Assembly: GCF_036507355.1 (NCBI RefSeq)
Contig: NZ_AP027877.1
Reading direction: 5' to 3' (one strand)
DNA length: 64,000 bases
From: Escherichia coli
GTDB taxonomy: Bacteria; Pseudomonadota; Gammaproteobacteria; Enterobacterales; Enterobacteriaceae
Shown here one piece after another: positions 6,027 to 64,000 of the stretch. Position 1 is the first letter of the stretch. The number at the start of each line of letters is the position of its first letter. Both the position numbers and the translations under genes were made by a program. The notes under the pieces were generated by a model. That model worked only from the letters and a program-made list of their open reading frames with translations. It made no database searches and was not told the DNA's origin.

Positions 6027-6677
6027 TCAATGAGACATCATTTCCTCGACCACTTCTTCGCTACTCAACTGATATGGATAATACGTTGGCCAGTTTTCCA
6101 TTTCATTTAATAAAGATTGCTGTGAATCATTACCCATAAAAATGTGAAAATGAGATGATTTTCGTGGTGCAATTATATGATCGCTAAATTGTATATATTT
6201 AGGGGCTTTGCTTTCAGGATCTTTACATTCGAATAAGTAACGAACGCCTTTCTTGCCTGATTTATAGGTGAGTATTTTGTATCCATCGTAATCATATTTA
6301 CAGGATGTTGTTTCATTATTTCTATGGAATTCAACAATGCCGTCCTCAATGCCAATCATCTCGATATCTGTTGCATAACCTTTGTGATAATAATCTTTAA
6401 TTTCAGCAAATGTTTTAGTTTTATCTGCATCCGCTTTCTTCTGAAAGACGGGGTCAAGTTTGCCACTTTGCAGTAAAGGATAAACGGATTGCCAGACTCC
6501 ATCCCAGTCACTGAGCGTTCGGTTTTGTACATTGGCATCATCAAAAACACCATTAGCAGCTTTTTGTTCGACCTCTGTTAAGGGTTTGCCGTGTGAGTGA
6601 TGACCATGCGAAAAGGCAGGAGCGCTAACAATAAAGACACCTAAAGCAACAGCCAGTTTGTGAAGACGAATCGCCAA
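6027..6677 (-). CDS. zinT: Periplasmic zinc/cadmium-binding protein ZinT
   Basis: His-rich N-terminus HGHHSHGK; 216 codons from in-frame TTG at 6675-6677 (track ATG 6698 gives 223). Confidence 0.9.
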
Positions 6678-6707
6678 AACAGTTTCCTCCAGAGTCATTG
6701 TATATGA

Positions 6708-6732
6708 TGTGTAATGTTATATTGTAACATAT
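6708..6732. promoter_or_regulatory. Zur box upstream of zinT
   Basis: TGTAATGTTATATTGTAACAT near-palindrome resembling the Zur operator consensus, just upstream of the zinT start. Confidence 0.6.
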
Positions 6733-6867
6733 GACAAAATGCAACAACTCTTAGGAGATGAGAGCATAGTTTTCTCAGGTGTACTTATCTATCTTATTGA
6801 AATAAAATGAATTATGTTGATAATTTGAGGTTGATGACAAACGAAACATAACCTGATGTGATCTGCG

Positions 6868-6903
6868 TAGGCCGGATAGGGCGCTCGCGCCGCATCCGGC
6901 AGG
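6868..6903. repeat. REP-like palindromic element
   Basis: GTAGGCCGGATAGGGCGCTCGCGCCGCATCCGGCAG between zinT and msrQ. Confidence 0.6.
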
Positions 6904-6933
6904 GATAACGCGTACTTTGTCGGCAATATGAAG

Positions 6934-7569
6934 TTATAGAGATAATTTGTTGTGAACCTGCTTGCGTAACCGGTTGAAAAAGGAAAGCAACTTCTTATAC
7001 CGTAAGGCTAAAAGCAGTACCGCCAGCCCAGCGTAGATGAGTGGCTGCGGTGAAATAATCTTCACTGACCACAAATAATGTATTGGGGCCAGGATCGCGA
7101 CAAGATAGACGAAGTTATGCAACTGTTGCCAGTGCTTGCCGAGTTTTCGCTGCATCGCCTGGGTTGAAGTGAACGCTAAAGCAAGCAAAATTACCCAGCT
7201 GATAATACCTAACGTTAAATAAGGCCGGGTAATTAACTCCTTACCTAATAACGCCAGATTATTCACGCCCAGCTCCAGCAATGCGTAACTTGTTAAATGC
7301 AGTGTCGCCCAGGCAAAGCACCATAATCCTAACAGGCGGCGAGTGCGTATCAATAACGGCTGTTTTGCGTAGCGTGCCATAGGTGTGATTAACAAGGTCG
7401 CCAGCAAAAATTTCAGTGCAGTGCGACCGGTAAAATGCTGAATATCTTTCACCGGATCGGCACCCAGTCCACCGTGATTGATCGCCCAGACCAGCCAGAG
7501 AAACGGCAACAATCCGGCAAGATGCAGGCAAACTTTCAGCCATGTCACCTGTTTTGCTGTCAGACGCAT
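6934..7569 (-). CDS. msrQ: Methionine sulfoxide reductase haem-binding subunit MsrQ
   Basis: 211-aa polytopic membrane protein; stop of msrP abuts its ATG. Confidence 0.92.
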
Positions 7570-9183: not shown

Positions 9184-9228
9184 AACCAGGCTGTTTCTAT
9201 AACATATGATTTATGGCATATTATTTTC

Positions 9229-9900
9229 ATGAAGATTTTACTTATTGAAGATAATCAAAGGACCCAGGAGTGGGTAACGCAGGGGCTTTCCGAAGCGGGT
9301 TATGTCATTGATGCCGTTTCTGATGGCAGAGATGGGCTTTATCTTGCGCTGAAGGATGATTATGCATTGATCATTCTGGATATTATGCTTCCGGGTATGG
9401 ATGGCTGGCAGATCTTACAAACGTTAAGAACAGCAAAGCAAACCCCTGTTATTTGCCTTACTGCAAGGGATTCTGTCGATGACAGAGTCAGAGGGCTGGA
9501 CAGTGGGGCAAATGATTATCTGGTAAAACCTTTTTCATTTTCTGAGTTGCTGGCAAGGGTTCGGGCACAATTAAGGCAACATCACGCTTTGAATTCAACA
9601 TTAGAAATCAGCGGCTTAAGAATGGACTCTGTTAGTCAAAGTGTGAGCAGGGACAATGTCAGTATTACACTGACGCGCAAGGAGTTTCAGTTACTTTGGC
9701 TACTGGCCTCCAGAGCTGGCGAAATTATACCCAGAACGGTTATTGCGAGTGAAATTTGGGGAATCAACTTTGATAGTGATACCAATACGGTGGATGTCGC
9801 CATTCGCAGGCTCCGCGCAAAAGTTGATGATCCTTTTCCTGAAAAGCTAATTGCCACAATCCGGGGGATGGGGTATTCATTCGTAGCGGTAAAAAAATAA
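9229..9900 (+). CDS. hprR: OmpR-family response regulator HprR
   Basis: 223 aa from MKILLIEDN; receiver plus winged-helix domains. Confidence 0.92.
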   Translation: MKILLIEDNQRTQEWVTQGLSEAGYVIDAVSDGRDGLYLALKDDYALIILDIMLPGMDGWQILQTLRTAKQTPVICLTARDSVDDRVRGLDSGANDYLVKPFSFSELLARVRAQLRQHHALNSTLEISGLRMDSVSQSVSRDNVSITLTRKEFQLLWLLASRAGEIIPRTVIASEIWGINFDSDTNTVDVAIRRLRAKVDDPFPEKLIATIRGMGYSFVAVKK

Positions 9901-11258
9901 TGAAAAGATTATCTATAACCGTCCGTTTAACCTTGCTTTTTATATTGCTGCTGTCTGTTGCTGGCGCCGGAATTGTCTGGACTCTCTATAATGGCCTGGC
10001 AAGTGAGTTGAAATGGCGCGATGATACAACACTCATTAACCGGACAGCGCAGATCAAGCAGTTGTTAATTGATGGGGTAAATCCAGATACGTTACCTGTA
10101 TACTTTAACCGGATGATGGATGTTAGTCAGGATATCTTGATCATTCATGGTGATAGCATCAATAAAATTGTTAACCGGACAAATGTCAGTGATGGCATGT
10201 TAAATAACATACCTGCTAGTGAGACAATCAGTGTAGCTGGCATTTACAGAAGCATTATTAATGATACAGAGATAGATGCTTTACGAATTAATATTGATGA
10301 AGTTTCGCCATCATTAACGGTTACTGTGGCTAAATTGGCTTCAGCCAGACATAACATGCTTGAACAGTATAAAATCAATAGCATTATAATTTGCATTGTC
10401 GCCATTATACTGTGCTCAGTATTAAGTCCGCTGTTAATCCGAACGGGGTTACGAGAGATCAAAAAGTTGAGTGGTGTAACGGAAGCGCTGAATTATAACG
10501 ATAGCCGAGAGCCTGTTGAGGTTAGCGCATTACCGAGAGAACTAAAACCTCTTGGGCAGGCGTTGAATAAAATGCATCATGCTTTAGTCAAAGATTTTGA
10601 GCGTCTAAGTCAGTTTGCTGACGATCTCGCTCATGAACTTAGAACGCCAATTAATGCATTACTGGGTCAGAATCAGGTTACGCTCAGTCAAACCAGAAGT
10701 ATCGCTGAATATCAAAAAACAATTGCCGGAAACATTGAAGAGCTGGAAAATATTTCGCGGTTAACAGAGAACATACTGTTTCTTGCCAGGGCAGATAAAA
10801 ACAATGTTTTGGTGAAGCTGGACTCGCTTTCTCTCAATAAGGAAGTCGAAAATTTGTTGGACTATCTTGAATATCTTTCAGACGAGAAAGAGATTTGCTT
10901 TAAGGTCGAGTGCAATCAGCAAATCTTTGCGGATAAAATTTTACTGCAACGAATGTTATCGAATCTTATTGTTAACGCTATTCGATATTCGCCAGAAAAA
11001 TCGCGTATTCATATAACCAGTTTTCTTGATACCAACGGATCTCTTAATATTGATATCGCCAGCCCTGGAACGAAAATTAATGAGCCTGAAAAACTCTTCC
11101 GTAGATTTTGGCGGGGAGATAATTCGCGTCATTCCGTAGGTCAGGGACTAGGCCTTTCTTTAGTCAAAGCGATTGCCGAATTACATGGGGGAAGTGCTAC
11201 GTATCACTATCTCAATAAGCATAATGTGTTCCGGATTACGTTGCCGCAAAGAAATTAA
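9900..11258 (+). CDS. hprS: Sensor histidine kinase HprS
   Basis: 452 aa, two TM segments, H-box HELRTP, ATPase domain; ATGA overlap with hprR. Confidence 0.92.
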   Translation: MKRLSITVRLTLLFILLLSVAGAGIVWTLYNGLASELKWRDDTTLINRTAQIKQLLIDGVNPDTLPVYFNRMMDVSQDILIIHGDSINKIVNRTNVSDGMLNNIPASETISVAGIYRSIINDTEIDALRINIDEVSPSLTVTVAKLASARHNMLEQYKINSIIICIVAIILCSVLSPLLIRTGLREIKKLSGVTEALNYNDSREPVEVSALPRELKPLGQALNKMHHALVKDFERLSQFADDLAHELRTPINALLGQNQVTLSQTRSIAEYQKTIAGNIEELENISRLTENILFLARADKNNVLVKLDSLSLNKEVENLLDYLEYLSDEKEICFKVECNQQIFADKILLQRMLSNLIVNAIRYSPEKSRIHITSFLDTNGSLNIDIASPGTKINEPEKLFRRFWRGDNSRHSVGQGLGLSLVKAIAELHGGSATYHYLNKHNVFRITLPQRN

Positions 11259-57276: not shown

Positions 57277-57427
57277 TCGTTTCGGCGCAATTTTCAGCAA
57301 ACGATCAAAAGTGGTGAAAAATATCGTTGACTCATCGCGCCAGGTAAGTAGAATGCAACGCATCGAACGGCGGCACTGATTGCCAGACGATAATAAAATC
57401 AAGTGATTAACTGATTGCTTGATGAAT

Positions 57428-57503
<76 letters not shown>

Positions 57504-57557
57504 GTTTAAAAGACATCGGCCTCAAGCGGATGTCTGGCTGAAAGGCCTGAAGAATTT

Positions 57558-57631
57558 GGCGCGTTAACAAAGCGGTTATGTAGCGGATTGCAAATCCGTC
57601 TAGTCCGGTTCGACTCCGGAACGCGCCTCCA
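57558..57631 (+). tRNA. cysT: tRNA-Cys (GCA)
   Basis: 74 nt GGCGCGTTAACAAAGCGG...GCGCCTCCA. Confidence 0.95.
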
Positions 57632-57643
57632 ATTTCTTCCCGA

Positions 57644-57730
57644 GCCCGGATGGTGGAATCGGTAGACACAAGGGATTTAAAATCCCTCGGCGTTCGCGCT
57701 GTGCGGGTTCAAGTCCCGCTCCGGGTACCA
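57644..57730 (+). tRNA. leuZ: tRNA-Leu (TAA)
   Basis: 87 nt GCCCGGATGGTGGAATCGG...GGGTACCA. Confidence 0.95.
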
Positions 57731-57772
57731 TGGGAAACATCAGAATAATCAAAGCAATAAGCAGTGTCGTGA

Positions 57773-57796
57773 AACCACCTTCGGGTGGTTTTTTTG
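57773..57796 (+). terminator. Rho-independent terminator of the glyW-cysT-leuZ operon
   Basis: AACCACC-TTCG-GGTGGTT followed by T7. Confidence 0.85.
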
Positions 57797-57969
57797 TGCA
57801 TGCAATTCACGCCCTGTGCATATCCTGTGCTCACGGGGTGCAATGAGCTGCAATCTTCAGCCTGGCAATGCCGAATCGAACGTGTCGCTTCCAGCATAGA
57901 GAACCAGGCCGCTTTGCCTGTTTTCCGGTACGCTTCCGGGAAGGGGGCCGCTGAGCAAGCTGTAATGCT

Positions 57970-58709
57970 CTAGCCACCCTGAGTACAAAGTTGCTTAATT
58001 CGTGCAATCACCTCATCTCTGTACTTCTGGTGTCCGCGCATAGCCCTTGGATGGGCAATTCTGAAACAGATTGCATTACCTGTTTTGAACTCCCATAGCT
58101 TCCCCGGAATGACTGCAGAAGTCTCATAGCCGCCCAGCTCAGTAAGCACCTGTTTTATGATGTAGTCTGTTCTCCGGGCTCCAGATGCAAAGATGATGAA
58201 ATCAGGCTCAAGGTGTTTAATTTGTACCGCCAGCAGCTTCAGCGAGGCAATATAACTTCCTGCACTTCATTTTGAGGGCGATTGAGAGGGGTCAGTCCGT
58301 CGTAATCCCACGCCAGTAGATTGGCATACACGATAGCCTGAGGAGGGATATTAAGCTCCCGGGCCAGCCTGAAATGATACTGCGTGAAGCGGCTACGTGA
58401 TTTGAGGTTAGTGGTGCCATAATTTTGTACCGGAAGATGTTTCCTGTAACGATCTACAGCTTCTTCAACCACCTGCCCGATGGTGACGTCAGGTATAAGT
58501 CCCAACACCCGTGATATCGTATTCTTACCATTCAGAGTATTCCAGCCAGCGGTTTCACGTCCAACCAGCATGATTTTTACCGGTGAGTGCCAGTATTCTT
58601 CAAAGGGCACGGGTAAAAAGACGCCTGAGTATTTATCCTCATTCAGGTTAAATGACTGGGCGTCAACTTCCTGCAATATCCGTTTGTACGCGTCTAATAG
58701 CTTTTCCAT
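57970..58709 (-). pseudogene. Hypothetical protein with uracil-DNA-glycosylase-superfamily-like motifs, split by a frameshift
   Basis: 156-codon ORF (58239-58709) continues in another frame for ~89 codons to TAG at 57970-57972; frames overlap at ~58242-58268; motifs KIMLVGRETAGW and IAHPRAMRG resemble UDG motifs A and B. Confidence 0.55.
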
Positions 58710-58789
58710 TCTTCAATCCTGCCCCGTAATAAAAACACCTTCAGATATATATTATCTCCATGATATCAATCAGATACATGAGGATAATT

Positions 58790-59989
58790 ATGCAAAAATC
58801 CTTCCGGTTTACCAATGCATCCATCAAAGCCCTACCTGCAAATACTGATACCCGCTCTACAGAGCTTGAGGTATCTGATACCGAAGTTATTGGACTCAAG
58901 TGCCTCTCAGGTCGAACAGGCAACAAGCGCTTCCTTCTGCGGTATACATTCCACGGTACCAAAAAAAGTATCAGTATTGGCAGATTTCCTGAAATTGATG
59001 TGGGAACAGCCCGGCAAATAGCCCGTCGTCACAAAGAAGCGATTGCGCTGGGAAATGACCCTAAAGCGGAGCGAGATAACTACCGCGCGATGCCAACACT
59101 TGGTGAGTTTTTCCATCAAACCTATGTTCCTTATATAAAGCGCCATAAAAAGTCATGGGATAAGGATGTTCAGCGTTTCACGCAATACATTGAACCTCGT
59201 CTGGGAAAGATACGTTACTGCGATCTCAGGGCCAGAGAGATACAACAGGTGCTGTTTGACATGCTGGAGGGGCGTATTCACGGGCAGCAATATGCGCCGT
59301 CTACCTGTAACAGAGCCCTTGCTATTCTGAAAACGATGGGGCGTTATGCGTTGCGACAGGATGTGCTGGAAAAGAATGAAGCCGATAAGATCCCTTTGCT
59401 GAAAGAGAATAATCAGCGGACGCGCTTTTTTGATGCTGATGAGATCAGGCGCATTCTTGACGCTGCTACCCAATATCCCAACAAAGCTGCCGGGGGATTG
59501 ATAGCCATGTTGTTGTTAACCGGTACACGCAAATCAGAAATGCTTAATGTCAGGCATGAACATATCGACCGGGCCAATCGTACTCTGTTCATTCCTTATA
59601 CAAAAAATGGTCGCAGTCGGACGGTATATCTAAGCGATGCCGCATTATCGATTATTGATGCTATCCCACGAGTTGGCAGTAATCCGTATCTGTTCGCCAT
59701 TAAGGATAATGGAAAACCGATATCGGAACCCCGATGGGCATATGAAAAAATACTGGCACAGTGCGGTATAGACAAGAATGAAGTCTGTTTTCACACCACA
59801 CGTCATTCTGTTGCCTCTTTACTGGTTTCGAGTGGTCAATTCAGCCTGTATGACGTTAAAGCCCAACTGGCGCATGCCAGTATTCAGAGTACAGAACGTT
59901 ACGCGAAATTAACACCGGAACGTATGCGTCAGACAGGGCAGGGAGTGACTGACCTGCTTCTGAATACTGCGGCTACGAAGCAGATGTGA
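58790..59989 (+). CDS. int: Tyrosine recombinase / phage integrase (P4-type), island integrase next to leuZ
   Basis: ~399 aa from ATG 58790 with RBS GAGGA; C-terminal catalytic region HTTRHS...ERYAKL. Confidence 0.88.
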   Translation: MQKSFRFTNASIKALPANTDTRSTELEVSDTEVIGLKCLSGRTGNKRFLLRYTFHGTKKSISIGRFPEIDVGTARQIARRHKEAIALGNDPKAERDNYRAMPTLGEFFHQTYVPYIKRHKKSWDKDVQRFTQYIEPRLGKIRYCDLRAREIQQVLFDMLEGRIHGQQYAPSTCNRALAILKTMGRYALRQDVLEKNEADKIPLLKENNQRTRFFDADEIRRILDAATQYPNKAAGGLIAMLLLTGTRKSEMLNVRHEHIDRANRTLFIPYTKNGRSRTVYLSDAALSIIDAIPRVGSNPYLFAIKDNGKPISEPRWAYEKILAQCGIDKNEVCFHTTRHSVASLLVSSGQFSLYDVKAQLAHASIQSTERYAKLTPERMRQTGQGVTDLLLNTAATKQM

Positions 59990-60019
59990 CTACTTTTTAG
60001 CAAACTATAAATATGGAGA

Positions 60020-60262
60020 ATGAGGATGCATTTAAAATGCCCACAGTGTGGCAGTTGTAATACATTGATAAGTTCAGCAGGAAAACTGCCATCGATAACC
60101 GATAATAAACGCTCTGGGTATATTAGCCTGGAGTTTTTACCTGAAATACTGAAAGAAATTATTAAGGCTATTAAAAAACTATTTGGATTCCTTGAACAGT
60201 GTGAAAGGAATAATGCTCCAGTGCTTATCTGTATGGACTGTGGGTATTATGAAAGAATTTAA
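60020..60262 (+). CDS. Small zinc-ribbon protein (CxxC...CxxC), hypothetical
   Basis: 80 aa with CPQCGSC and CMDCGY; followed by its own terminator. Confidence 0.55.
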   Translation: MRMHLKCPQCGSCNTLISSAGKLPSITDNKRSGYISLEFLPEILKEIIKAIKKLFGFLEQCERNNAPVLICMDCGYYERI

Positions 60263-60310
60263 ATAGAAAACCAATAACTGTAAATAATAGTTATGCGGAT
60301 GTATAAAAAC

Positions 60311-60339
60311 CCCGATACGTTAATCGTATCGGGTTTTTT
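60311..60339 (+). terminator. Rho-independent terminator separating the zinc-ribbon gene from the three-gene cluster
   Basis: CCCGATACG-TTAAT-CGTATCGGG followed by T6, A-run upstream. Confidence 0.8.
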
Positions 60340-60357
60340 GTTTATGAGGATCATTCA

Positions 60358-60729
60358 ATGAAATTTGTCTCGAACTGGCAAGACCTGCCGTCGCTCCTTC
60401 TTCCGGAGTCAGTAATGAGTCTGTTGAAAACAGAGCTGGTACTCCCATTTGAAGATGAATACTCTGCAATGAGTTTCTGGGATGAAGTCGGGGTGACATT
60501 AATATATGTCGAGCCCGATGATGTACCTGAAGATATTAAAGCGCAGGTATTAAATGTGATTCATCAGTTAATTGCAAATCCAGAATTTGTAGTCCGTCTG
60601 ACAGATGACTATTACCTGATGCTTTCTGTTACGGAAGATAACGGGAACGGTATTTATCTGTTATTTCACCCCGATTGCCCTCTGAAGGGTATTGATTTAT
60701 TAGTTTCTATGGCCGAATCACGCTATTAA
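60358..60729 (+). CDS. Hypothetical acidic protein (123 aa)
   Basis: RBS GAGGA; highly acidic; AT-rich codon usage unlike the flanking core genes. Confidence 0.6.
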   Translation: MKFVSNWQDLPSLLLPESVMSLLKTELVLPFEDEYSAMSFWDEVGVTLIYVEPDDVPEDIKAQVLNVIHQLIANPEFVVRLTDDYYLMLSVTEDNGNGIYLLFHPDCPLKGIDLLVSMAESRY

Positions 60730-60754
60730 ACACAAGCAAAACCAGGAACACAAA

Positions 60755-61288
60755 ATGAGTAAATCAAAATTAGTTAAAAATAATGTTGAGTCAGTTTCGA
60801 AGGAGATTAAAAATGAGGCAGAGGTTATTCATGAAAATCTCAGTGCAGATGAACAAACATTATCTGATGTAAAAGACTATCAGTTGCTCATTGAAACAGG
60901 TCAGGCAGAAAAAATCAGTCCTAAGGCAAGTGGTATGCTGACATGGCAACTGGCGATATCAGAGGTGGACAATGAACTTTATCTTCGTCTGGTGGCAAAT
61001 GGCTGTGGAGGGTTGTTCTCTAAGGACTGGATCTCACTTTCAAAGATTGCATCTGTTCTGGAAACACAACCTGCTACCGGCTTCTCATCCGGAGTATTCA
61101 GGCCGCTATTCAAAGGGGCAAGCACCAACAATGCAGGTTTTCTGGCTGCAGTTTTACGCTCCCCGGATATATGTCTGCTGGAGGCACATCCAGAGAAGTT
61201 ATTTACTCATGTATTATACCCGGACTGGAGGGAGCGGTTGAATAAACTTAATACGATTAGTAGCCAGGAAAAGATTACAGAGGATTAA
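60755..61288 (+). CDS. Hypothetical protein (177 aa)
   Basis: RBS AGGA; 25-nt gap from upstream gene, suggesting co-transcription. Confidence 0.6.
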   Translation: MSKSKLVKNNVESVSKEIKNEAEVIHENLSADEQTLSDVKDYQLLIETGQAEKISPKASGMLTWQLAISEVDNELYLRLVANGCGGLFSKDWISLSKIASVLETQPATGFSSGVFRPLFKGASTNNAGFLAAVLRSPDICLLEAHPEKLFTHVLYPDWRERLNKLNTISSQEKITED

Positions 61289-61360
61289 TTTATTTCCTGC
61301 ACTGTTATACAACCAGAAATCACCACACACCACTATTTACTTTCTAAAGGAAAATTTATT

Positions 61361-61795
61361 ATGCAAACCCAATATGCCTTAAAACAGGCAGGATTAACTC
61401 TGCCTGTTACTAAAGAATTTCAGCAGCATATTACTACGCTTCTGGCAAATCGGGTTTTACAAAAAATAACTGAGGCAGTGGTTATTAATTTCCGTGATCC
61501 GGACTACAGTGCAGAATCCGGCGGATTTCATCCGGTTGAAATGCGATTCATCCGTCAGGATAACGAATGGTATTTCGATTATGTCACAGACTTTAGTTAC
61601 ATGGGACGAGTCTACCCGGAACTGGAAAAAGAAATTGATTTTTGCTGGTCGGGGAATTATGTCTTCCATTATCTGGCTGGGGATATTTCACTGGCGGCAG
61701 AGAGGAATGAACTCTGGTCCTTATGGGAGGGTAATTTTATGGATTACCTGTCTATGGGGATTTACCGGGTAACGGTAACTGTGGAAAGTTGTTGA
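61361..61795 (+). CDS. Hypothetical protein (144 aa)
   Basis: RBS AAGGA; Trp/Tyr/Phe-rich. Confidence 0.6.
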   Translation: MQTQYALKQAGLTLPVTKEFQQHITTLLANRVLQKITEAVVINFRDPDYSAESGGFHPVEMRFIRQDNEWYFDYVTDFSYMGRVYPELEKEIDFCWSGNYVFHYLAGDISLAAERNELWSLWEGNFMDYLSMGIYRVTVTVESC

Positions 61796-62096
61796 CCCGT
61801 TATGAACAGGAAGAAAGCGGGCGGCTTTGTAATCTACTGCATGTGGCGTGCATCACAGCATGGAGATGATGTCTCTTTTTCCTGGCTGTTCGCATAAACA
61901 AGTGCAGACACGGGGGATCTCAGATCCCTCGTGATTTTTGCCCCCTATGGTGCATTCTCCAGTAGCAGGGTGATAACGGTTAATCCATTACCCCAACGAC
62001 AGTATTACACCGGTAATAAATGTTCATGAATACAGTTAGTTATGTGGGTTTTGAGGTGGGCTATGTCATCGTTGACGATAACTGAAGGTTTTACAG

Positions 62097-62324
62097 ATGT
62101 ATAAAACTCGCGGTGAAAGGATCGCAGAAAGGCTGTGCTGGATATTACTTCAACTGTATACCGGTAATACGGTATCGGTTAATGATATATGTCAGCGTTT
62201 CGCGGTCAGTCGCCGAACCGGACAGCGTGATTTGTTGAGAGTTGAAACTGTAACGGAAACTATTTCACCTGGAAGGGTAAGGCTGGCAAATTTGATAAGG
62301 GAACGAGTTAGACGAAATTTTTAA
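62097..62324 (+). CDS. HTH DNA-binding protein, possibly a truncated regulator
   Basis: 75 aa; helix-turn-helix-like segment VSVNDICQRFAVSRRTGQRDL. Confidence 0.45.
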   Translation: MYKTRGERIAERLCWILLQLYTGNTVSVNDICQRFAVSRRTGQRDLLRVETVTETISPGRVRLANLIRERVRRNF

Positions 62325-62546
62325 TCGAATCCATATCAATTCTATAAAATATGAAAATTAACGGGAGTAAATATACACTCCCGTTATAATGCAACCTTTT
62401 TTTAACTACTCAAATGATATTAATTTAGGTGCGACAGTGTTTTTATGACATGTTAAATTCGCAAGATCAATAATATCATGAAACAATTTTAGGTAATGCT
62501 GCCAACTTACTGATTTAGTGTATGATGGTGATTTTAAGGTGCTTGC

Positions 62547-62822
62547 GTGGCTTCCATTTCCATCAGATGTCCTTCCTGCTACGCTACTGAAGGCGTGGTG
62601 CGTAACGGCAAAAGCACTGCCGGACATCAGCGCTATCTCTGCTCTCATTACCGTAAAACATGGCAACTACAGTTCACTTACACCGCCTCTCAGCCCGGTA
62701 CGCACCAGAAAATCATTGATATGGCCATGAATGGCGTCGGATGTCGCGCCAGTGCACGCATTATGGGCGTTGGCCTCAACACGGTTTTACGTCACTTAAA
62801 AAACTCAGGCCGCAGTCGGTAA
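62547..62822 (+). CDS. insA: IS1 InsA
   Basis: 91 aa [23 protein letters not shown]... Confidence 0.92.
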
Positions 62823-62848
62823 CCTAGCGCATACAACCGGGCGGTGAT

Positions 62849-63244
62849 GTGATTGTCTGCGCTGAAATGGACGAACAGCGGGGTTACGTCGGCGCTAAAT
62901 CACGCCAGCGCTGGTTGTTTTACGCGTATGACAGGATTCGGAGGACGGTTGTGGCGCACGTATTCGGTGAACGCACTCTGGCCACACTGGAGCGTCTTCT
63001 GAGCCTGCTGTCGGCCTTTGAGGTCGTGGTATGGATGACGGATGGCTGGCCGCTGTATGAATCCCGCCTGAAGGGAAAGCTGCACGTTATCAGCAAGCGT
63101 TACACTCAGCGCATTGAGCGACATAATCTGAATCTGAGACAACATCTGGCAAGGCTGGGACGGAAGTCACTGTCGTTCTCAAAATCGGTGGAGCTGCATG
63201 ACAAGGTCATCGGGCATTATCTGAACATAAAACACTATCAGTAA
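62849..63244 (+). CDS. insB: IS1 InsB (expressed as InsAB' by -1 frameshift)
   Basis: Frame open upstream of the first ATG. Confidence 0.9.
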
Positions 63245-63435
63245 GTTGGAGTCATTACCTGTTTTTGCTGCATATTTGGCCATGCACTTTTGCCATCAAG
63301 TCAGAGAGACAGGGGCACCGTAAGAGACGAAGGTTGCTGCCTGTGATGAGAGGTTATCAGCAATTACAATGGTCACTAATATTTACATAATGTCGGAGAA
63401 CATCATTTTAGTTGAAATAATATAAAGGCGGTTCT

Positions 63436-63762
63436 ATGTATTTACATATCAGAAAGTATCAACTCGTAAATGCGAGATGGCGTGATATCATTGATTTGAC
63501 GGATTATGAAGAAACAATCAAGCAGGTTGTGAGTACATTATTTGGAAATGATTTTATTGAGGTCAGAGTTGAAACGCGTTGTTTTATTCTGACAGTAAAC
63601 AGTACAAGCAGTAAAATACCACACGGCATACTGGTGAATATGGGGAAAAGGCTGGCGGCGAATCTCCAGAGTATCACCTGTCATGCCATGCGGATCTATC
63701 ATGTAAATGGCCATCCTGACGCGCGGCAGTTATTTCACTGTTTTGATGCCGATTGCCTGTGA
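63436..63762 (+). CDS. Hypothetical protein (108 aa)
   Basis: ORF only; beyond IS1 in AT-rich DNA. Confidence 0.4.
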   Translation: MYLHIRKYQLVNARWRDIIDLTDYEETIKQVVSTLFGNDFIEVRVETRCFILTVNSTSSKIPHGILVNMGKRLAANLQSITCHAMRIYHVNGHPDARQLFHCFDADCL

Positions 63763-64000
63763 TTAAGCCCCCAACTTCTGTTAAAGGAGTTGGGGGAGAT
63801 TTAACGGTTATCAGACTGGAAGACAGAATGTCGGATATTTACGGGCTATGATATCCATCAGTGACTTCATTCGCGGTGTTACAGAACTAAATTTCATTTG
63901 GGGTATTTTTGCTCTTACCGCATTTTTTACATCAGTCACCGTTACTGAATAGCCTTCTGACGTCAGCCATTCAGCAACCTCTTTACAGGAATAACTTTTT

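Follow-up and report, generated by a model that had tools for sequence, protein, structure and literature searches.

The leuZ island and its gene map

The window, that is, the whole 64,000-nucleotide stretch of Escherichia coli DNA that was analysed, carries the tRNA-Gly, tRNA-Cys and tRNA-Leu(taa) genes at 57428-57730, and an Rfam search over 57300-64000 returned nothing besides these three tRNAs. To the right of leuZ lie an integrase gene with two orphan genes, a DUF2787 gene, a small 75-aa helix-turn-helix (HTH) ORF, an IS1 copy, a 108-aa orphan gene and the end of a gene for an 866-aa protein (Table 1). The order uvrC-pgsA-tRNA Gly/Cys/Leu and then integrase is the same in three E. coli relatives, strain WCHEC050613 (L001), strain 1506 (L002) and L003. 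Between leuZ and the integrase, a minus-strand gene at 58239-58709 encodes 156 aa in the window versus 246 aa in L002 and L003; its L001 copy is marked as frameshifted by PGAP, and it looks like a pseudogene common to the L001-type lineage.

Table 1. Features of the island around the IS1 copy (window coordinates; L002 is E. coli strain 1506)
Feature	Coordinates	Strand	Basis
tRNA-Leu(taa), leuZ; island integration site	57644..57730	+	ARAGORN, Rfam
DUF2787 gene, intact, pipolin core	61361..61795	+	Pfam DUF2787 E 2e-39
Small stand-alone HTH gene, 75 aa, evidently full length and conserved	62097..62324	+	Orthologues, synteny, pN/pS
Terminator-like hairpin between the convergent small HTH and DUF726 genes	62359..62386	.	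Terminator scan
DUF726 remnant: stop, last 27 codons and 2 nt	62406..62491	-	Aligns with L002 9207-9292
Left junction of the deletion, private to the window	62491..62492	.	L002 position 9292
IS1, 768 bp, ends intact, evidently chimeric, predicted transposase-defective	62492..63259	+	
IS1 positions 159-447, rare-variant alleles	62650..62938	+	8/8 informative sites
TAG nonsense codon in the InsAB' frame	62825..62827	+	Translation
IS1 positions 524-768, resident-type alleles	63015..63259	+	12/12 informative sites at 524-750
Right junction, common to all 93 IS1-bearing relatives	63259..63260	.	L002 11202/11203
108-aa orphan pipolin gene, intact	63436..63762	+	Hypothetical protein in all relatives
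piPolB gene 3' end: last 62 codons and stop, runs off the window	63811..64000	-	Identical to L001 C-terminus

The 866-aa protein, of which the window holds the last 62 codons alone, has K613-H614 and KTRG623 in L001 and L002, and a KH motif and a KTRG in place of KxY are hallmarks of E. coli piPolB (PMC5695915). Its Pfam DNA_pol_B_2 match is weak (E 0.009), and a PDB sequence search with piPolB was empty. A Leu-tRNA gene is the published site of E. coli pipolins (PMC7385651). Enterobacterial pipolins have core genes for an IntSXT-type integrase, DUF2787, a WYL-domain protein, IntP2 and an excisionase (PMC11551731). The window contains integrase and DUF2787 genes and lacks a WYL gene, evidently owing to deletion, and L002 does have one. 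Integrated pipolins are bounded by att direct repeats, of which the distal one would fall beyond the window's right end. Since the piPolB hallmarks, the integration at a Leu-tRNA gene and the integrase/DUF2787/WYL core set match published pipolins, the island at leuZ is, judged by its sequence, a pipolin, an element encoding piPolB.

The island shares with the enterobacterial pipolins described previously (Redrejo-Rodriguez 2017, Flament-Simon 2020, Mateo-Caceres 2024) its leuZ neighbourhood, integrase, DUF2787, orphan genes and a piPolB with KH and KTRG, and in the window's relatives piPolB is followed, as in those elements, by an HTH_17 protein and a second tyrosine recombinase. It differs from them in that the window copy lacks the WYL core gene and its DUF726 neighbour, through what appears to be an IS1-associated deletion. 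Regarding the other genes, the 108-aa orphan had no Pfam, NCBIfam or PADLOC match, and NCBIfam and PADLOC gave nothing for DUF726 and DUF2787 and just a weak, HTH-level match for the 75-aa ORF.

The small HTH gene

The HTH matches of the 75-aa ORF fall below the Pfam gathering scores (HTH_11, 21.4 versus 25 bits; HTH_DeoR, 17.8 versus 21); several orthologues are listed in their source databases as DeoR family regulators, and for two orthologues PF08220 matches are precomputed. HTH-WYL regulators are laid out as an N-terminal HTH followed by WYL and WCX domains in about 230-330 aa, and the ORF, which is HTH-like only, does not have this layout. The preliminary description had considered it a possible N-terminal remnant. 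A decayed fragment of a longer WYL-type regulator would fit the 27% identity that it shares with the 300-aa WYL regulator of the island in the latter's N-terminal HTH (pairwise E 2e-4), the match of the PADLOC WYL model to its N-terminal part (E 1e-4) and the fact that PGAP leaves it unannotated in L001, L002 and L003. We consider this origin highly improbable, because the relatives of the ORF tell otherwise.

Among 5.8 billion proteins searched, 26 relatives were found; the full-length ones measure 75-78 aa, share 73-77% identity and come from Citrobacter, Enterobacter, Scandinavium, Serratia and E. coli, the orthologues found aligning end to end across the five genera, and the ORF has the same length in IS1-free relatives. 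The orthologue of Citrobacter freundii keeps the position: there, too, it follows DUF2787 directly, within a pipolin that occupies the corresponding chromosomal locus. Comparison of the two genes (69% nucleotide identity; 14/11/45 differences by codon position) gave a pN of 0.155 versus a saturated pS of 0.78, which points to strong purifying selection. Orthologue length, synteny and selection thus speak against a remnant, and the 75-aa gene is evidently a maintained, full-length and conserved small gene. As its orthologues are HTH-only proteins of 75-78 aa, they would constitute a separate family of small stand-alone HTH proteins, whose HTH domain may share ancestry with the WYL regulators. 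The ORF can accordingly be regarded as a real small HTH gene of enterobacterial pipolins that merits a gene call.

The gene ends 167 bp before IS1, and in between lie a hairpin with an 11-pair stem, followed on the minus strand by a T-run, and the stop codon of the DUF726 gene. It appears to be unaffected by IS1 and unrelated to the deletion event; the regulator truly lost is another gene, the 300-aa HTH-WYL-WCX protein encoded on the opposite strand.

The IS1 copy and the DNA missing beside it

The element has the attributes of the IS1 family, with a length of 768 bp, terminal inverted repeats (left GGTAATGCTGCCAACTTACTGAT; right, on the reverse strand, GGTAATGACTCCAACTTACTGAT), an insA gene (62547-62822) with Pfam matches to Zn_ribbon_InsA and HTH_Tnp_IS1, an insB frame matching DDE_Tnp_IS1 (E 7e-73) and an A6C frameshift site at 62798-62804 joining the insA and insB' frames. 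The IS1 end pattern (about 23 bp, imperfect, GGTRATG...) was matched at 62492 and 63259, with 0 and 3 mismatches, and nowhere else in the 64-kb window, where 0 matches were expected by chance. Unlike a typical family member, this copy lacks a target duplication and combines two alleles in a mosaic; its frames show a nonsense codon and the loss of a zinc-ligand Cys. The nonsense codon is a TCG to TAG change that stops InsAB' seven codons past the A6C site, and the lost ligand is the result of Cys35Tyr in InsA (62650), within the CxxC...CxxC zinc ribbon. Owing to these two defects the window IS1 is predicted to be non-autonomous, unable to make transposase, and a non-autonomous pseudogene would be its proper annotation. 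With its two terminal repeats intact, it could still be moved in trans, and it remains a substrate for homologous recombination. Additionally, an 86-aa minus-strand ORF at 62406-62666 starts within the left end of IS1 and reads on into what is left of DUF726; this deletion-made fusion is probably meaningless, and gene callers could annotate it.

The 9-mers flanking the element differ, ACAATTTTA at 62483-62491 and TGTTTTTGC at 63260-63268, and inspection of the junctions for a shorter direct repeat found none. End-pattern search, Pfam and flank comparison therefore confirm the first reading of this site as a 768-bp IS1 between unlike 9-mers. In control simple IS1 insertions we found duplications of 9 out of 9 bp in L005 and L006 and of 8 bp in L007, which makes the missing duplication a meaningful anomaly. 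A second IS1 carrying the matching 9-mers was sought in the 64-kb window, which contains one IS1 only. A simple insertion whose duplication had since decayed was rejected, as no register aligns the two 9-mers and the comparison with relatives proves a loss of DNA.

The comparison with an IS1-free relative, which had been proposed together with the first reading, was carried out on strain 1506. Its DNA is not continuous across this point: between the window's flanks it holds 1,910 extra collinear bp (L002 9293-11202), which together with the controls bears out that IS1 did not arrive here by simple insertion. The best E. coli matches cover the full query but span 308 bp more than the window. 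In L001, whose island type is 99.9% identical to that of the window, the left flank aligns up to position 7192 and IS1 with the right flank starts from 7501, so that the extra 308 bp lie directly left of IS1. Three IS1-bearing forms can be distinguished by their left junctions. The L001 type has its junction at L002 9600, has lost 1,602 bp and occurs in 90 of 5,426 complete E. coli genomes; the L003 type (junction at 9326, 1,876 bp lost, 3/5,426) has lost 274 bp more than the L001 type and keeps 34 bp more than the window; and the window form (junction at 9292, 1,910 bp lost, 0/5,426) exceeds the L001-type loss by 308 bp. At least 80% of the intact segment, with no junction and none lost, is present in 179/5,426. 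Neither a full 50-mer match nor a 240-mer match to the window's left junction was found in the 5,426 genomes, a set that thus does not include the source strain or close kin of it. The right junction, L002 11202/11203, is by contrast with these variable left ends identical in every IS1-bearing form (93 genomes and the window). The L001-type junction also lacks a duplication (GTGGCTCCG / TGTTTTTGC). Between the window and L001 there are 12 differences in 62492-64000, all of them within IS1 and 0 in the 741-bp right flank (63260-64000).

These comparisons support the view that IS1 marks a 1,910-bp local deletion inside the pipolin, and the nested left junctions combined with one fixed right junction indicate that the loss was evidently stepwise. 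The preliminary description had suggested an IS1-mediated deletion or rearrangement that took away part of the island; the deletion part stands, with 1,910 bp accounted for in L002, and the rearrangement part falls, since the flanks are collinear and in the same orientation in IS1-free forms. For the same reason its suspicion that the DNA to the right was originally non-contiguous with the left does not hold: both belong to one island, in one orientation, 1.9 kb apart in the IS1-free form. The opposite polarity, in which the IS1-free forms gained 1.9 kb, was rejected. Loss is indicated by the truncated DUF726 end that the window retains and by the WYL gene, which belongs to the conserved pipolin core and which the C. 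freundii pipolin has as well. The deletion also explains the lack of a duplication, which is consequently no argument against the identity of the element as IS1.

In L002, two minus-strand genes, DUF726 and the 300-aa regulator, separate the small HTH gene from the 108-aa orphan. The DUF726 gene (272 aa, 9207-10025), whose product resembles alpha/beta hydrolases, is gone from the window but for its last 27 codons. The regulator, with HTH_DeoR, WYL and WCX domains and named YafY family protein in some records, is missing as a whole. The deleted gene has the domains of the HTH-WYL-WCX regulators of defence islands (YafY / BrxR / CapW type); it differs from them in being absent here. That the WYL protein regulates neighbouring pipolin cargo would follow by analogy with the BrxR/CapW literature cited in PMC11551731.

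For annotation, these findings mean that IS1 at this site marks missing DNA and not an insertion into intact DNA, and that this is a pipolin copy without a core regulator (WYL) and a cargo gene, an instance of pipolin core modules eroded by IS activity. IS1, IS-mediated deletions and pipolins are all already known, and the event is an ordinary insertion-sequence deletion.

The C. freundii pipolin (CP056967.1; L009 8001-11344) lies at the same uvrC-pgsA-tRNA locus and has other genes between its small HTH gene and its WYL regulator, namely three small ORFs and one for a GTPase-like protein of 295 aa. Such differing cargo suggests that the interval may be an exchangeable cargo slot. Sampled E. 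coli genomes show many independent insertions (IS1A, IS1B, IS2, IS3, IS903B) in the homologues of the DUF726-WYL segment (L002 9150-11450), among them simple IS1A/IS1B insertions in the same 2-kb segment in L007 (2178-2945) and L008 (1206-1973), and the WYL gene is split in some E. coli pipolin genomes of the sample. The segment is 61% AT, and either an AT-rich hot spot or selection against these genes could explain the insertions. We find it doubtful that the recurrent independent disruptions, the IS1 deletion of the 93 genomes included, reflect selection to inactivate the WYL regulator or the cargo and not just an AT-rich hot spot; if they did, piPolB or a toxic/defence function, for example, would be de-repressed, and the window would represent the most reduced state.

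Allele composition of the IS1 copy and the last step of the loss

Six IS1 copies were compared at informative sites. At IS1 positions 159-447, 8/8 sites match the copies of EA2 (L004), EH10-18-47 (L005) and E8 (L006) and not the resident type, whereas at positions 524-750 it is the resident type of L001 and L003 that is matched, at 12/12 sites, rather than the EA2 type. The EA2-type bases in the first segment are A159, A335, G352, T393, C402, C414, T424 and T447. Over the rare-allele segment, identity to the EA2 copy amounts to 99.5%, against 97.4% for the resident type. The switch falls between positions 447 and 524 (62938 and 63015); within positions 1-158, the EA2 copy cannot be told from the resident type at any site. 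The base that creates the TAG codon is the same in the EA2 and EH10-18-47 copies, both of which PGAP annotates with 'internal stop', and private to the window are changes at position 90 (62581, InsA S12Y) and position 388 (62879, Trp to Arg, in the InsB part). The window IS1 thus appears as a chimera, with a rare defective allele on the left and the resident IS1 on the right.

From the observed states, the following course can be proposed. The ancestral state would be IS1-free, with DUF726 and the 300-aa regulator between the small HTH gene and the 108-aa orphan. In a first step, IS1 replaced 1,602 bp, which covered the regulator in full, the region upstream of it and DUF726 in its 5' half; this state is the one seen in the L001 type, and for its mechanism two routes, a crossover between IS1 copies or an adjacent deletion, come into question with neither favoured. 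In a second step, 308 bp more were lost to the left of IS1 while the right junction stayed fixed, which is the state of the window. We infer that for this second step another IS1, a rare and already defective allele, would have inserted at ACAATTTTA, oriented like the resident and 308 bp to its left. The two copies would then have recombined homologously, crossing over somewhere in IS1 positions 447-524, which would remove the 308 bp plus one IS1 equivalent and leave a single chimeric IS1, with the left flank and left half of the newcomer and the right half and right flank of the resident. As the left flank would come from one insertion and the right flank from another, no target duplication would remain.

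We hold with moderate confidence that the last 308 bp were lost by such an IS1 x IS1 crossover after a second insertion, because the hybrid IS1 and the private junction then fit one chain of events. A donor-like allele of EA2 type exists in other E. coli, which supports the crossover, and a relative genome has about 40 IS1 places, so that recombination partners would be abundant. Less in its favour are the uninformative positions 1-158, where a left switch point, as in a gene-conversion patch, is possible, and the defect of the incoming allele, which would have needed transposase in trans. The predicted junction of a two-IS1 precursor (the IS1 right end followed by ACAATTTTATGTCGTC...) occurred in none of the complete E. 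coli genomes. In the Lenski long-term E. coli lines, IS150-mediated rbs deletions reportedly arise in this manner, with a new IS copy recombining with a nearby resident. The present case is like those and like IS1 adjacent deletions in that one junction is fixed at the IS end and the other is variable and nested, in that no target duplication is left and in that an IS-free relative holds the missing DNA. It is unlike them in that the event is known from sequence alone, the chimeric IS1 providing sequence-level evidence that two alleles recombined. If correctly read, it would be a clean natural example of an IS allele mosaic that records how a deletion formed.

An alternative that we regard as possible, though unlikely, is a transposase-mediated adjacent deletion, in which the left end of the resident IS1 transposed intramolecularly into ACAATTTTA and the mosaic, from about position 90 or from 159 up to 447, is a separate conversion patch for which another IS1 of the genome, of EA2 type, served as template. 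Nested left end points with a fixed right junction are its classical signature, and deletions of the Reif and Saedler type are said to show just these nested end points and fixed IS1 junction; the end points fit a crossover equally well. IS1 targets AT-rich DNA, and the end point in the window is AT-rich (67% AT). Moreover, the transposase of the resident L001-type IS1 is intact (PGAP WP_094106546.1), and IS1 positions 1-158 leave room for the left switch point that a patch demands. Against this, an adjacent deletion needs two independent, rare and lineage-private events where the crossover needs one chain, and the present IS1 is transposase-dead, so that the deletion would have had to come first and the conversion second.

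An assembly artefact seems to us very unlikely; the true sequence would then be either a direct pair of IS1 copies separated by the 308 bp or a resident-type IS1, which the assembler collapsed or mis-threaded. The abundance of IS1 in related genomes (about 40 copies) would facilitate such an error, mis-threading through a repeat would also yield a chimeric pattern and the junction is found in no other genome. However, the contig continues across the IS1 for 64 kb in all, an unusual outcome where short reads of a repeat have collapsed, the private substitutions at IS1 positions 90 and 388 are left unexplained by a mixture of two known alleles, and real deletions of more DNA at this end are seen in the L003-type genomes. 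Finally, we consider it extremely improbable that an IS1-mediated inversion or translocation, or recombination involving a distant IS1, brought together DNA that never belonged to one island. The absence of a target duplication is the one point in favour of this reading, and in the relatives checked, E. coli L002, L007 and L008, one pipolin contains both flanks with order and orientation unchanged, in a gene order that the C. freundii pipolin shares.

Two of the other IS1 copies compared here deserve mention with regard to the spread of the rare allele. The internal-stop IS1 of EH10-18-47 (L005 932-1699) lies inside a c-di-GMP phosphodiesterase gene and is flanked by a perfect 9-bp duplication, CATTTTGGT, and the EA2 copy (L004 1001-1768) is without one. 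As the EH10-18-47 copy bears the stop and yet has a perfect duplication, this transposase-dead element was apparently mobilised in trans, unless the stop spread by conversion. The L003 IS1 (6327-7094), for its part, contains three private substitutions within 40 bp, at positions 435, 471 and 474, a cluster that may be another small conversion patch linked to the 274-bp deletion of that form.
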